In this document: piece by piece, positions 22,067-31,353 of the stretch
How positions within the stretch are numbered: position 1 is the first letter of the stretch
How the letters are laid out: each line of letters opens with the position of its first letter
Assembly (NCBI RefSeq): GCF_009931435.1
Contig: NZ_CP043414.1
Strand: one strand, 5' to 3'
Source of the DNA: Escherichia coli
GTDB taxonomy: Bacteria; Pseudomonadota; Gammaproteobacteria; Enterobacterales; Enterobacteriaceae
DNA: 64,000 nucleotides
Program-made: the position numbers and the translations under genes
The notes under the pieces: generated by a model
The model's input: only the letters and a program-made list of their open reading frames with translations
The model's database searches: none
What the model was told of the DNA's origin: nothing

Positions 22067-22158
22067 TCACCACGCTAAAGCTCCGTGTCCACATAACCTA
22101 GGTCGGAGGCATGACCTTCTCTGGTTCGTCCCATCTAAAATGTCTATAAAGAACATGG

Positions 22159-22560
22159 TTATTCAATTATTTTTTCTTTGAGTTTATTCTCAATCCAGCT
22201 GTCTTTATACCTGATGAAAATTTGACACTCACCAATATTATCAATGTCTCCAGAATTTGTATTTGGAATTTGTCCAACTGCAACTATAGTTGATTCAAAA
22301 TATTCAACATTGACATTATCTGTAATTATTGAAATTATATAATCATCTGGAATAGAGCCATTAGGAGTTATATTGAAGAAACTAACACCTGAAAATACAA
22401 AATAACCATCTTCTAAGTCTTCATTATCATAAAAATTCCATTCTGTTGTACCATAGGCTATCCTTGAGATTAAATTAACCTGAATTCTAATTTGTTTACT
22501 CCATAAATCAAATTCAATTTTTTTTATTGCTCGATCACCAAGATATATTCTATCAAACAT
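22159..22560 (-). CDS. Hypothetical 133-aa protein in the Rhs-associated AT-rich region; candidate orphan immunity protein
   Basis: ATG start with AGGGGG 5 nt upstream; AT-rich; no recognisable family by eye. Confidence 0.55.
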   Translation of the reverse strand: MFDRIYLGDRAIKKIEFDLWSKQIRIQVNLISRIAYGTTEWNFYDNEDLEDGYFVFSGVSFFNITPNGSIPDDYIISIITDNVNVEYFESTIVAVGQIPNTNSGDIDNIGECQIFIRYKDSWIENKLKEKIIE

Positions 22561-23111
22561 ATTACCCCCCTATTCTAAAAATACTCAGGCATTCCGCACA
22601 TTATATCAGCCTCATCTTGATTGCTTCTCGTTTCCCGATACGGCGGCGCGGGGAGTCATAAAGGTAAGAAATTTCCAGCAGTACGGCGTCCTATTGTTCA
22701 CGGCGGTAATGCACCAGCCAGTATTGGCTATCGTAGTGATAACCGTGTAACCTGCCGCCGCATCGCGTATCTAATGTTCATTCTTTTCCATAAACCGTCC
22801 GTACACATTGTGATAGTAAAAATACAATACATCTTTGCTGATGCGGTTATTCTGCTGCATGTGGGGAGCGCCGAATACTGCTCCCGGTATGGCCAGTAAT
22901 TACTATTTAGTACGACGTTAGGGGGAGTCAATTAATCTCACAGATACTTCAAGTAACAGATGAAAATCGCTCCTGAAATGAAAAAAGAAATTTTTTTGAA
23001 TGTGTTCCTGTCAAATCAAGTGGTTTTTTCGTCGATATGTAGAGTCATATTGTAAACAAAATTGTTACGAAACACACCTTGGTAAAATATTTGAATCGAC
23101 TGTACAGTGGA

Positions 23112-23339
23112 TTATTTTGTGTGTATTACATTCAACACTTGCCCATCTTTTTTCGCTATTAGTATTGTAAAATTTCCTCCTAACGTCTTCGGTTGTTTTC
23201 CCTCGATTTTCCAACAATTATTGTCATCTGTAATACTATATGGTTTCTGAAATTCTGCTTTTTCTTTCCCGTATACATATTTAATGTAAACATATGATAA
23301 TTCCAAAGCCATTTCACGACTATTTACTAAAATTTCCAC
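23112..23339 (-). pseudogene. 5'-truncated paralog of the 21211..21609 secreted-protein gene (signal peptide lost)
   Basis: GTG-initiated 75-aa ORF VEILVNSREMALELSYVYIKYVYGKEKAEFQKPYSI...; homology to the paralog continues 6 codons upstream (VSGKENP) to an in-frame stop inside the palindrome. Confidence 0.6.
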
Positions 23340-23357
23340 TGGATTTTCTTTTCCAGA

Positions 23358-23395
23358 TACTTATTATGATATTGTAAACAATATCATAATAAGTA
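23358..23395. repeat. Perfect 18-bp inverted repeat with 2-bp spacer (tacttattatgatattgt aa acaatatcataataagta)
   Basis: Read directly; one arm is homologous to the coding sequence (..NIIIMRKY..) of the paralog at about 21470-21492, so the palindrome looks like an inverted duplication that truncated the gene. Confidence 0.8.
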
Positions 23396-23582
23396 ATATT
23401 AGTGAGTTTCTCGTGTTCTACACCTATCGAATCTCAAAAGTTGAGGGTAAAACATTACATTCAGAATATATGATATTCCTACCATCGGAATCCATTTTTC
23501 CAAATCGACCTTCTGGTGTGCCTGGATATCCATTAAGAACATGTTTTTCCGAATGGTTAATTTATTTTCTCAGGAAGATGTT

Positions 23583-24152
23583 TTATTTTTCTTCACTACG
23601 AAGCAGTTCATGCTGTATTTTTGTTAAACATTCGTAAGACTCATCTTTGTTCGGGAGATGTGCTGTCATTCGAGCATAAGTTGGCTTCTCATCTTTAAAA
23701 TATTTAACCATGATTGAATTATCAAGGACTGCCAACAACTGAGCTGGATCACTGCTCTTTTTTTGATAGATACCCGCTCTTATATAACTTCTAAACCGAT
23801 CGCCGAGAAACGCCGTTTTTTCTGCTGTATTTATCAACTCCTGCAACGTTCCTTTGATGGCATGATTTTCATTAAGGCGTAGTGACCCAACGCGAATTAA
23901 GAGTCTCGCCCCGCTTGGTGTGAATTTATTATTTTTACATGTACCCAGTTCTGTTTGCCAATAATACTCACCGATGTCCTCATTCTGATACCATCTCCAC
24001 ATGGCTTTATTATTTAAGACAGGAAACGCGGAAAAAATAGTACCCTTAGCGAAAATAGTAAAACAATCATGATCTTTAGCTTGTATTTCGCAATCAGCTA
24101 TAGCACCAAAACTAACAAATATCATCAGCAAAAAGAACAAAAATCTTTTCAT
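23583..24152 (-). CDS. Predicted secreted immunity protein for the RhsB C-terminal toxin (yhhH-like position)
   Basis: 189-aa ORF with Sec signal peptide [21 protein letters not shown]; its ATG overlaps the rhsB stop (ATGA at 24152..24149), typical toxin-immunity coupling; AT-rich. Confidence 0.7.
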
Positions 24153-27100
24153 TTTCTTATTCCTCTCGATGTTCTCTGTTTCATTTTAGCTAAAATTTCA
24201 CCCAAATCATCTATCCCTGCTGTTGCTGGCCCATCGGGTTTATTAATGTCTGGGAATAAATAGGGTTCTGCACAAGTATATCCTGGTGGTAATTGAGTTG
24301 TTGGCCAATTTGTCTGTGGCAGGTAATCACTTGCTGTCTTTGTATCCATCCCTGGATACTGGGGATCATCCTGTGGCGTACAAGTCAGATTTGGTTTTAC
24401 CCACTTCCTGCAATACAGTGTGTAGTCGTAAGGGCTTAATGCTCTGAAGAATGTTTTGAAAACATTAGGCGCACTACTGGCCTGGTCAATAGGATATGGC
24501 AGTCTTAATTGTTTCGCTATGTCTGGCAATTTACTTGGATCGGGCGTAGGCGGTTTGTTGGGTCTCGCTCCATATCCGCCATTATTTAAGTGTCCATATT
24601 TTGATGCCAGTCCCATTGAATCTATATACTGAACCGGATTCAACGGATACTGATAAAAATTCCACCCGCCTTCCAGCCCAATCGGATCCTGAGTGATATA
24701 CCGCCCCTGCAGCGGGTCATAATAGCGATGGCGGTTGTAATACAGGCCGGACTCCTCCTCATACTGCTGACCCGGCAGGCGGATGAGCTGCTGCAGCTGG
24801 TGCGGGTTCTCTTCATTCAGCAGGTTGCCCCACTCATCGTATTCTGCGCACCATTCTGTTGCCCCTTCCGTGCTGACAAGCGCCAGCGGCAGGCCGCGAT
24901 GGTCGCAGTGGTACAGGTGGATTTTTCGCGCCGGCGTGTACACCGGGTCCATCTGGTTTTGCATCTGCTCCACCGTCAGGCCGCACGATGCCAGCCAGCG
25001 GCGGCTTTCCTCACTCACCCGGTCAGCCAGGATTTCACTTTCCAGCCGGTCGGGCATCTGCACCAGCACCGGCGGGAACACCACATGGCCACCGTCTTCA
25101 CCGCCGGACTGCTGAAGAGCGTCCGCCAGGCTGCGGCGCTGCGTTTTCGCCAGCTCACCGGTGGCGGTTTCAACTCTGATGAGTGGTGCGAAGCTCCCCG
25201 GCTGATAAACCGTCTGGATGCGGGTTCTGTCGTTCTGTATCGTGGTCAGCCGGTCGCCGTCCCAGCCGTACCAGGTCACTTCCGGTTTCCGTGACAGCGA
25301 CATCCAGCCCGTCAGGTCCCGTTCACGCCGCCACACCCGTTTTGCCACCCTGCGGCCCAGCGGGTCGTAAAGATAGCGACTTTCGACCAGCGGCTCTGCA
25401 TATTGTGTCCGCGTGTAGTGCACCAGCCGGTGCTGACTGTCGTAATGGTACCGGTGAGTCCGCTCATCATCCGTGCGGATAACCCCTTCCGGGATGAGGT
25501 CGGTTTTCTCCGTCAGCCTGCCGTGACGGTCATACCGGTAAAGATAGTGCGCGTCACGTGTTATACGATTATCCGGCCATATGCAGAGGGTGCTGTCCGG
25601 GTGCAGCTCCGGGTCAGGCAGGCGGTTACCTGCCGGGTCCGTGGCATACGGGATGCGGATATCCAGATTTGAGGTGGTGGTGTGGACGCCGGTCAGCCTG
25701 CCGGAGTCGCTGTAGCTGTAACTCCGGGTCTGGCGCGGGCTGCTGATGCGAATGAGTTCGCCGTTGTCGTTCCAGGTGTAATCGCGGTCATACTGCAGGC
25801 TGTTCAGGTGCTGGCTCTGTAACTGCCCGGCAGGGGTGTAAGCGGTGGTGAGTTCATAACGGCCGAAGCTGCGCAGCGTTTCCCGGTGCAGGCGGTCGCG
25901 GGTGAAATCCACCAGCGGTGTGTCGCCGAGTTTCATCCCTGCCAGGTAACCACTGCCATAAGTCAGCCATTCCACGGCGGGCAGGCTGTCCGGTATACAG
26001 CGGTTCGCCAGCCCCTGCGCGTTGTACGCATGTCTGGTTTCATGCTGCCAGAGCAGTGCTTCCGTCTGCGGGTGATGCACCGTCTGGCGCTCACCGGTCA
26101 GGCGGCCTTTCTCATCATACCCGTAATGCACCGTCACCCGGTGCCCTTCGCTGAGATGGCTGATGCCTGTCAGCCAGCCGCGTTCGTCGTACCGCCACTG
26201 TTCTGCGGTTTCACCATTCACCGTTCGCTGCGTGATGCGGTCTGCTTCGTCATAGTGCCAGTGGGTGACCAGTCCCTCATCCTCGCTGCGGATAAGTTTG
26301 CCGGTCAGGTCGTGGTGATAACGCTGTGTGCGGCCGTCAAAGCCGGTTTCCTGTATCAGCCGGTCGAGTACATCGTAACGGAAGGTGGTGTGGCTGCCGT
26401 TTTCGTTTGTCAGGCGGATGACCCGTCCTGCAGCATCGTATTCCATACTGCGGGTCAGCCCGCCCTGCGTGGTACGGACGGCCTTTCCCCACGCATCGTA
26501 CTGTGCCCCGTATCTGCTGCCGTCCGGGGCAATGACGGTGGTCAGGTCACCGGCGGCGTTGTATTCATACCGCGTTTCATGGCCCTGCGTGTCTTTCACC
26601 GCAATTAACTGTCCATGGCTGTCGTATGCGCGGCACTGGCTCAGGCCTTCCTCGCGGTGCACCGCCGTCATCTGCCCGAAGCGGTCATGGTCATAACGGG
26701 TCTGGTAGCCGGAACAGTCGGTGAAGGTCAGCAACTGACCGTAACGGCTCCACGTCATGGTTTTCCGGCTGCCGGTGGCATCTTCCGTTGCGCAGGGGAA
26801 GTCACTGTGTGGATTATCATAACGGTAGCGGATGATATCGCCGTCAGGGGCAGTTTCCTGAATCAGACGGCCGGATTCATCATATTCCCGGCGTATTTCC
26901 AGCCCGTCAGGCCCGGTGGCTGACGTTAACTGGTTGTGGTGGTTATAGTAAAACGCCGATGCCCTGCCATCCGGCGTGGTGATGCGCGTGATGAGTCCCG
27001 TCACCACATCCGGGCTGTATTCTGTTGTCCGGCCTGCGGCATCCGTCTGTGTCCTGAGCCTGCCCACCGCGTCAAACTGACTCTGCGTGACGCTGCCGTC

Positions 27101-28348
27101 CGCGTGTTCCTTTTTCACCACCCGCTTCAGCCCGCCTTCGCCTGCGGTATGCAGGACTTCATGGCGGTCCAGGCTGTCGGTGATGGTGATGCGGTCTTTC
27201 TCATACTGATACGTGTAGCTTAAGCCTGCCGGGTTTAGCTGTTCTGTCACCCGCCCGTCGCTGTCGTAACGGTAACGGATTTCCGGCCGGCCCGTGTGAC
27301 GGTGCGCCACCATCCGGCCCCGGTATTTATCATCGTAAGTAAAGCTGCGCACCTGTGTATTGCTGCGGTCATACACCGCCGCCAGTTCGCCGCGCGGCGT
27401 CCAGCCATAGCGCACCAGCGGCGTGGCTGGCAGGTTGTCCGGGTATTCCGGGTCGTGCGTCAGCCACACGGCAGACAGACGGATACCGTTGTCCCGGCCA
27501 TATTCCGTGTAGTCCGGCAGGGTATCAGGAAAAGCGGACTGTTCCGCCCCGCCGGAAGAGGCCTGCTGCCGGGCCTCTTCTGCCCGCTGCGCCTGCGTGG
27601 TCAGTGCCAGCCGGAAGTGACGCCCGGCACCATCCGTCACGCCGGTGATTTCGCCGCTGAATTCACCGGCGGCTTCGCGGTGAAACGTCTGTGTGCGCCC
27701 GAAGCGGTCCACCAGCCCGGTCAGTACCCGGTACGGCGGCAGCGGCGCGGGCAGCACCTCATCCGCCTCCGGCACCCGCTCACACCAGCCGAGTACCCAC
27801 CACGGCCCCTGCGGACTGTTCGTCGCCAGATAACGATGCGGACTCAGGCGAAGCTCTTCCGGCAGCGCCTGCCAGAGTGCGGCCAGCCGGTGACCTTCAT
27901 CCAGTCTCAGGACGCCGCCGCGCACCAGCCAGAGTGACTCGCTGCGGCTGTAACCGTCCTCACCGGGAAACAGGTGCTCAAAATACAGGCTTCTGCCGCC
28001 GTTATCACTGAGTATCAGTGTGTTATCGCGCAGCTGTAAGCGGATATCCGCAGGCATTTTCCAGCCGGGGCCGAGAATACCCACCGGCGCGGGCGTTTTT
28101 GTCCGGTAACTGCTGTACGTGCGGGAGAGGATGAACGGCAGCGGTCCGGGCAGGGCAATGTCTGTCTCGCCGGGAAGGACCTTTGCACCGAGCAGGGGAT
28201 TGACCGGATGGCCGGACGTCACCCCGCCGGGGCACACCGAACAGGCCACGCCGGTGGGGGCACCAATACGTACCCCGGCTGAACCCTGAACAATGCTACC
28301 GCCATACTGCGTCATGTCGCCCTGACGCGCCGCCGGTTTTCCGCTCAT
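24149..28348 (-). CDS. rhsB: Rhs-family polymorphic toxin (RhsB-like): N-terminal domain, YD-repeat shell, core ending in the DPxGL motif ([17 protein letters not shown]), and a roughly 177-aa C-terminal variable toxin domain
   Basis: 1399-aa ORF; numerous YD repeats (RYxYDxxGRL); GC-rich core against an AT-poorer C-terminal tip; RBS aagga upstream. Confidence 0.92.
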
Positions 28349-28550
28349 CGTAAAATCCTTTTCTATTATTTTAATGACAGTATCTTCATACGAAAAAGCG
28401 AAGAAAAACTTGTGGTCACAATGAATTGAAGATTTTTAGGAATATATTTAGAACGTTACAAAAGAGAAGGTTCGGATAGGGTATTTAGAGAGGAATCAGG
28501 TGTGCTAGTGGCCCTTTGTTGATCGTTCACCAAAGGACCCAATAATAGGC

Positions 28551-31353
<2,803 letters not shown>

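Follow-up and report, generated by a model that had tools for sequence, protein, structure and literature searches.

Probable origin of a perfect palindrome in a decaying orphan Rhs immunity gene of Escherichia coli by quasipalindrome template switching

Introduction

At the rhsB locus of Escherichia coli, within the 64-kb stretch of DNA analysed here (the window), a perfect inverted repeat lies inside a coding region and carries in-frame stop codons, which raises the question of whether it is a functional element or a mutational scar and, in the latter case, from where the sequence of its arms was copied. A preliminary description proposed an inverted duplication in which one arm was homologous to the codons for NIIIMRKY in a full-length immunity paralogue, with removal of the signal peptide of the affected gene, an end to its homology at the palindrome and possible later use of the repeat as a terminator or operator. 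Correction of imperfect to perfect inverted repeats has been proposed in proteobacteria from comparative genomics, as a process maintaining perfect repeats (PMC5941160), and template switching at quasipalindromes is an established mechanism in E. coli, documented at a thyA hotspot and in lacZ reporters with an 18-bp quasipalindrome (PMC7202029, PMC6357072). Comparison of the window with orthologous loci and complete genomes indicates that the palindrome is very probably the product of a quasipalindrome-associated template-switch mutation, as in the Ripley model.

Geometry and setting of the palindrome

The perfect 18-bp palindrome is present as first described, the + strand of 23358-23395 reading TACTTATTATGATATTGT (left arm, 23358-23375), AA, and ACAATATCATAATAAGTA (right arm, 23378-23395), with arms that are 100% complementary. 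It is the sole perfect inverted repeat of at least 12 bp with a loop of at most 10 nt in the window, and in 300 of 300 first-order Markov simulations of the AT-rich surrounding 4 kb (36.5% G+C) the longest stem was 12 bp or less. As single-stranded DNA, the window allele folds into a hairpin of -13.4 kcal/mol (z = -6.6), whereas the ancestral allele defined below reaches -5.6. The uniqueness in 64 kb, the simulations and the single-stranded fold together establish that the palindrome is real and far beyond chance. The exact 38-mer had no match in contigs representing one genome per species. At 38 bp, the palindrome falls short of the length at which instability is known in E. coli.

Across the locus, the order of genes is rbbA and yhhJ (both +), a truncated ISEc1/H-repeat transposase, orphan modules, a 75-aa NTF2-fold ORF (-), the palindrome, a YbfC-like gene (-), the RHS core (-) and nikR (Table 1). 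The segment containing the YbfC-like and NTF2 genes occurs at rhsB or rhsC in 844-845 of the 5,426 complete E. coli genomes. Orphan pieces further downstream occupy 20864-22560 on the minus strand. Relative to strain 2020CK-00188 (L001), which has the same rhsB locus, the window is without 760 bp (L001 1633-2392; window 20344-20778, with the junction near 20392), corresponding to the 3' part of the ISEc1/ISAs1 (yhhI, H-repeat) transposase gene, of which a 144-aa N-terminal ORF is left. Divergence from the same strain over 20392-28700 is ~0.1% in the orphan modules (20892-24891), ~2% in the Rhs core (24892-28700) and 3% in the H-repeat remnant, a mosaic that suggests recombination within the Rhs element.

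Table 1. Coordinates of features at and around the palindrome in the window
Feature	Position	Strand	Basis or remark
yibA-like HEAT-repeat fragment, annotated 'lyase'	20864-21121	-	
Paralogue, 132-aa YbbC/YhhH-family immunity protein	21211-21609	-	32% identity to intact orthologue
Pentapeptide-repeat toxin fragment	21563-21940	-	Overlaps YbbC/YhhH-family gene 21211-21609
DUF6258 ORF	22159-22560	-	
Orphan Imm-NTF2-2 (PF15631) immunity pseudogene	23112-23414	-	Translation, intact orthologues, Pfam
Residual 75-aa GTG-start ORF	23112-23339	-	PGAP in relatives: NTF2 fold immunity protein WP_000404862.1
Perfect palindrome	23358-23395	.	18-bp arms, 2-nt spacer
Putative templated patch, + strand GAGTG to TATTA	23362-23366	.	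Alignments with L001-L004, mismatch list, variable-site table
Unchanged arm, presumed template	23378-23395	.	Identical across all E. coli alleles examined
Displaced Rhs toxin tip remnant, last 45 codons and stop	23424-23561	-	Translation; alignment with L009-L014
YbfC-like 189-aa protein, presumed cognate immunity of main Rhs	23583-24152	-	Annotation
RHS element core protein, 1399 aa	24149-28348	-	Annotation

A decaying orphan immunity gene

The palindrome is located within the signal-peptide coding part of an orphan Imm-NTF2-2 gene on the minus strand, the former start codon of which, at 23414-23412, is ACG following mutation of ATG, and the stop codon of which is at 23114-23112. In the frame of this gene the window reads ...NTRNSLILLIMILFTIS, two stop codons and VSGKENPVEILVNS..., such that the in-frame stop previously noticed inside the palindrome is confirmed and is in fact a pair, TAA TAA at 23366-23361 in the minus-strand reading. 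The intact form of the pseudogene is 100 aa long, beginning MRNSLILLIMILFTISHSVFGKENPVEIL, and a protein search with the translated ORF recovered intact 100-aa forms beginning MRNSLILLIMILFTISHSVFGKENPVEILVNSREM (P0004, P0006, P0007). Residues 35-100 of the intact 100-aa orthologue match PF15631 (Imm-NTF2-2) at E = 4e-19, and in other genomes the intact immunity gene begins 10 nt past a Rhs protein with a DUF4329 tip; by domain and position, the 100-aa protein is a predicted member of the Imm-NTF2-2 (PF15631) immunity family of a Rhs toxin. A comparison of the immunity proteins with NCBIfam yielded no names.

Each of the two arms codes for part of a hydrophobic N-terminal segment, L-L-I-M-I-L-F-T-I-S-(H-S)-V, which on inspection looks like a signal peptide. 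The earlier proposal that the signal peptide had been removed does not hold, as its codons are still there; they are severed from the remainder of the gene by TAA TAA, and the ATG has become ACG as well. The residual 75-aa ORF retains the NTF2 domain without the signal peptide. Beyond the former start codon lies the toxin-tip remnant, reading INHSEKHVLNGYPGTPEGRFGKMDSDGRNIIYSECNVLPSTFEIR and then a stop. Where the same module is intact, as in the Rhs-DUF4329 and immunity gene pairs of L009-L014, it has a DUF4329 C-terminal domain; the toxins of L009 and L010 match PF14220 (DUF4329), a domain of uncharacterised activity. The signal peptide on the immunity protein hints at a periplasmic target for the DUF4329 toxin.

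Inactivation of the orphan Imm-NTF2-2 gene has occurred in several independent ways in E. coli (the window, L001-L004, L006, L016). The change from ATG to ACG is common to the window, 2020CK-00188, strain B and TUM13936, O157:H7 has a separate nonsense change (TTA to TAA at the position equivalent to 23329), frameshifted forms are represented by P0008, P0009 and P0031, and the palindrome-derived lesions take the form of TAA TAA or TAA CAA. PGAP annotates the same 75-aa WP_000404862.1 in most of the inactivated alleles. The double stop adds a further lesion to an orphan gene in decay. Since the ATG had already been lost in this lineage, the event that created the double stop was most likely neutral, and the palindrome is most likely a scar and not a device.

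Three concerted base changes

Over 23100-23600, strain 2020CK-00188 differs from the window only at G23362T, G23364T and G23366A, and the two have ~20 private markers in common over 2.1 kb. The three changes fall within 5 nt, against only four other SNPs in the 4 kb of 20892-24891, and are in this sense concerted; no allele with just one or two of the three was found among the loci and protein clusters examined. Every change installs the exact complement of the opposite arm, the new TATTA being the reverse complement of 23387-23391, which raises pairing from 15/18 to 18/18 and recodes CAC TCA (His-Ser) to TAA TAA.

In the sense of the gene, the second arm reads ACAATATCATAATAAGTA in the window and ACAATATCACACTCAGTA in all four relatives compared, namely 2020CK-00188, RIVM_C037884 (L002), B (L003) and O157:H7 SS52 (L004). 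A 15/18 quasi-palindrome accordingly lay within the signal-peptide codons beforehand (LLIMILFTISHSV), and is found in ~828 of the 845 complete E. coli genomes with the segment. Orthologues at 86-65% protein identity, situated beside intact Rhs-DUF4329 toxins, have CACACTCA or CACATTTT here, encoding His-Ser or His-Phe at the position of the patch. The majority allele within the species and the unconverted bases in these distant orthologues identify the 15/18 state as ancestral. Pairing differs by clade: the window pairs at 18/18 positions and the E. coli orphan clade at 15/18, with a fall to 12/18 at the loci of P0006 and P0007 and to 6/18 at those of P0010. Judged from these orthologues, the inverted repeat arose by chance from AT-rich codons for hydrophobic residues and is not conserved as a structure. 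Inspection of related strains, which had been suggested as a check, therefore gave a divided answer: the repeat is indeed present there with no homology to the paralogue in its arm, but as an imperfect coding accident rather than as a regulatory site.

Within the window, the mutated 14-mer ATCATAATAAGTAT is matched closely only by the inverted sequence of the opposite arm. As far as blastn can detect, E. coli genomes carry essentially one copy each of the 461-nt segment (851 places in 847 genomes), with one copy in 2020CK-00188 and two in some other genomes. Given no other near-copy in the window and a segment that is essentially single-copy, the opposite arm is the only plausible template. 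The full-length paralogue of the preliminary description is a genuine family relative, but it is not the donor of the arm: a comparison of 23100-23480 with 21200-21620 gave ~55-60% DNA similarity in the coding part and no specific match to the arm.

Under the proposed mechanism, the ancestral orphan Rhs immunity gene would have held the accidental imperfect inverted repeat, 15/18 paired. During DNA synthesis a nascent 3' end would leave its proper template, anneal to the complementary arm of its own strand or of the strand across the fork, copy at least 5 nt from that arm and then return. A single event of this kind would swap all three mismatched bases for their complements, yielding a perfect repeat and converting CAC TCA to TAA TAA. 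Direct observations are that the 15/18 state is ancestral, that three bases changed, that each new base is the exact complement of the opposite arm, and that another donor is absent. From these we infer the replication mechanism and the identity of the switching strand. Template switching had been named at the outset as a possible class of mechanism, and the three arm-complementary changes support it.

Recurrence and replication orientation

An identical perfect palindrome is present in TUM13936, the sole such genome among the complete genomes (1 of 845), and the metagenome contig OLHG01000949.1 bears the TUM13936 haplotype. This haplotype is situated at the rhsC locus and has five marker differences from the window in 500 nt; one is 23444 and another is 23356, which lies 2 nt from the arm and 6 nt from the patch. 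Furthermore, a 17/18 allele, ACAATATCATAACAAGTA, is found in 16 complete genomes, all at rhsC, and comprises the three templated changes together with a T-to-C change that restores one mismatch, the resulting codons being TAA CAA. It is located at position 1445-1482 of each of L016-L019, L021 and L023-L025. Assembly noise was considered as the source of this allele, first seen in L015, and was rejected, ten further loci showing it to be real. The nearest sampled haplotype to the 17/18 genomes, L022, has three derived markers in common with them, yet carries the ancestral 15/18 form. The T-to-C change (equivalent to 23363) counts against template switching in that it is not predicted by the template and needs either an extra mutation or a misincorporation; it could be a later point mutation of the perfected palindrome or a misincorporation at the switch itself. 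As a near-perfect quasi-palindrome, the 17/18 allele should in turn be prone to further correction.

On a tree-like reading of the haplotypes, the same arm may have been converted independently two, possibly three, times. The perfect patch and its 17/18 variant suggest a recurrent hotspot, or else short-patch recombination. The reciprocal correction, in which the other arm would be changed, is absent from the 5,426 complete genomes, where the best matches were the ancestral allele with three mismatches; this absence is not expected under simple symmetric models, though the events number only two or three.

The two loci would be replicated in opposite directions relative to the gene, as judged from GC skew and KOPS. 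In the window, + strand skew (Rhs element excluded) is +0.038, Chi sites (+:-) are distributed 16:7 and KOPS 4:0, from which the + strand would be leading, the fork would move left to right and the gene would be head-on to it. With the gene in the same orientation, TUM13936 has a skew of -0.014 (Rhs element excluded), Chi at 6:7 and KOPS at 2:7, which would make the gene co-directional with the fork. The rhsB and rhsC loci map to opposite replichores of K-12, and the skew and KOPS readings agree with these positions. The corrected arm is the gene-3' arm in both genomes. If the switch was intramolecular, it would have taken place on the lagging strand in the window and on the leading strand in TUM13936; if it was intermolecular, the strands would be the other way round. 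Two or three events are too few for a claim of strand bias.

It is possible, if doubtful, that the site is a naturally recurrent hotspot at which the same arm has been corrected two to three times, at two loci and in opposite replication directions. If so, the choice of arm would be set by something other than leading- or lagging-strand identity, candidates being transcription direction, local sequence, or a mixture of intramolecular and intermolecular switching, and the coexisting 15/18, 17/18 and 18/18 alleles would be a natural system for measuring the rates and biases of switching in the wild.

Alternative explanations

The alternative to recurrence is that the patch arose once by template switching and then reached the window by very short-patch recombination or by intragenomic conversion between rhsC and rhsB. 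E. coli recombines often, some genomes hold two copies of the segment, the Rhs region is a mosaic (0.1% vs ~2% divergence from 2020CK-00188 in adjoining stretches), and TUM13936 and the 17/18 alleles have the same rhsC architecture. Such an import would, however, have left the window fitting the 2020CK-00188 haplotype at the ~20 private markers on either side, would have been confined to a tract of at most 87 nt (between markers 23356 and 23444) with one end inside a 6-nt interval, and would have entered a lineage whose relative 2020CK-00188 holds a single copy of the segment; this route is therefore considered unlikely, although not negligible. Much less can be said for three independent point mutations, a local cluster of damage, or a sequencing or assembly artefact. 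All three changed bases are G on the + strand, and two of the changes are G to T, as expected of 8-oxoG, but the chance of three hits on precisely the mismatched positions, each with the complementing base, estimated from counts at ~7 substitutions per 4 kb, is of the order of 1e-11, and the same triple change recurs in independent assemblies and in a metagenome. The probability left to this explanation is minimal.

The inverted duplication originally envisaged, with a paralogue-related arm that created the palindrome, deleted the signal peptide and ended the homology, draws on a 13-nt AT-rich likeness (AATATYATAATAA) to 21470-21492. Part of this DNA similarity was produced by the mutation itself, the ancestral allele resembling the paralogue less, and the NIIIMRKY reading with which the arm had been equated is in a different frame from the immunity gene, CNNIIIMRKYESEG standing opposite a 14-residue gap when the intact orthologue and the paralogue are aligned as proteins. 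Aligned with its orthologues, the gene stays collinear and keeps its length across both arms, up to the old start codon and on into the toxin remnant, such that homology runs on where it had been thought to stop; no sequence was gained, inverted or lost, and both arms existed beforehand in the 15/18 form. Together with the retained signal-peptide codons, these observations make an inverted duplication extremely improbable. The hairpin could instead be a selected element, serving as a ybfC terminator, an RNA stability element or an operator, as its position 187 nt 3' of the ybfC stop codon and its stable RNA fold (-25 kcal/mol in a 91-nt context, z = -6) might suggest. The stem is AU-rich, with 2 G-C pairs in 18, and the sequence downstream, UCUGGAAAAG, has no U-run, unlike an intrinsic terminator; the terminator and promoter scan made no call at the palindrome, Rfam gave no match there, and just one of the 845 complete genomes has the perfect form. 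On these grounds, selection for use as a terminator or operator is unlikely. The position inside coding sequence and the decay of pairing across orthologous loci, from 18/18 to 12/18 and 6/18, likewise speak against a conserved operator, and selection for the hairpin in any of these forms is held to be very improbable. The end of a mobile element or a MITE was also considered, and was rejected on the grounds that the repeat lies within conserved coding sequence.

Comparison with known systems

Quasipalindrome-associated template switching is thus the preferred reading, and the locus represents a well-supported natural instance of a known mutational mechanism, possibly at a recurrent hotspot, with no evidence of new biology and no new element or function revealed by the palindrome. 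It offers a clean, phylogenetically polarised case of a one-step multinucleotide mutation by template switching in wild E. coli, which standard variant callers and substitution models would score as three independent SNPs, and which annotation conceals, PGAP yielding the same 75-aa protein under either upstream allele. It also illustrates one route by which perfect bacterial palindromes can arise without selection, and adds one more path to the inactivation of orphan Rhs immunity genes.

The experimental quasipalindrome systems, as cited in PMC7202029 and PMC6357072, comprise the 1982 model of Ripley, the thyA hotspot (Viswanathan et al. 2000; Dutra and Lovett 2006) and the lacZ QP5/QP6 reporters (Seier et al. 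2011). As in the thyA and lacZ mutations, an imperfect repeat was made perfect in the window by bases complementary to the opposite arm, several changes occurred at once, the outcome recurs identically, and the stem equals the 18 bp of the laboratory reporters. Unlike the revertants selected in those systems, this is a natural polymorphism in wild isolates. It is made up of three interleaved substitutions, in place of a frameshift or single base change, and it affects the same arm at two loci that are replicated in opposite orientations.

Comparative-genomic cases include the template switches of Löytynoja and Goldman 2017 (as cited in PMC5941160), the conservation of inverted repeats in Proteobacteria (PMC5941160) and coding-sequence cases in yeast (PMC8604942). 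In common with these, a clustered multinucleotide change in the window copies an adjacent reverse complement and homogenises a short repeat in coding sequence, whereas the double nonsense in a pseudogenising orphan gene and the coexistence of 15/18, 17/18 and 18/18 alleles in one species set the present case apart. The module itself follows the pattern of orphan Rhs/CDI modules, with a 3' toxin fragment followed 10 nt later by an immunity gene, a position downstream of the main Rhs and immunity pair and upstream of an ISAs1/H-repeat element, and an intact version elsewhere fused to a full Rhs; in these respects nothing about it is unusual, and it is decaying, as in other lineages, by various lesions.
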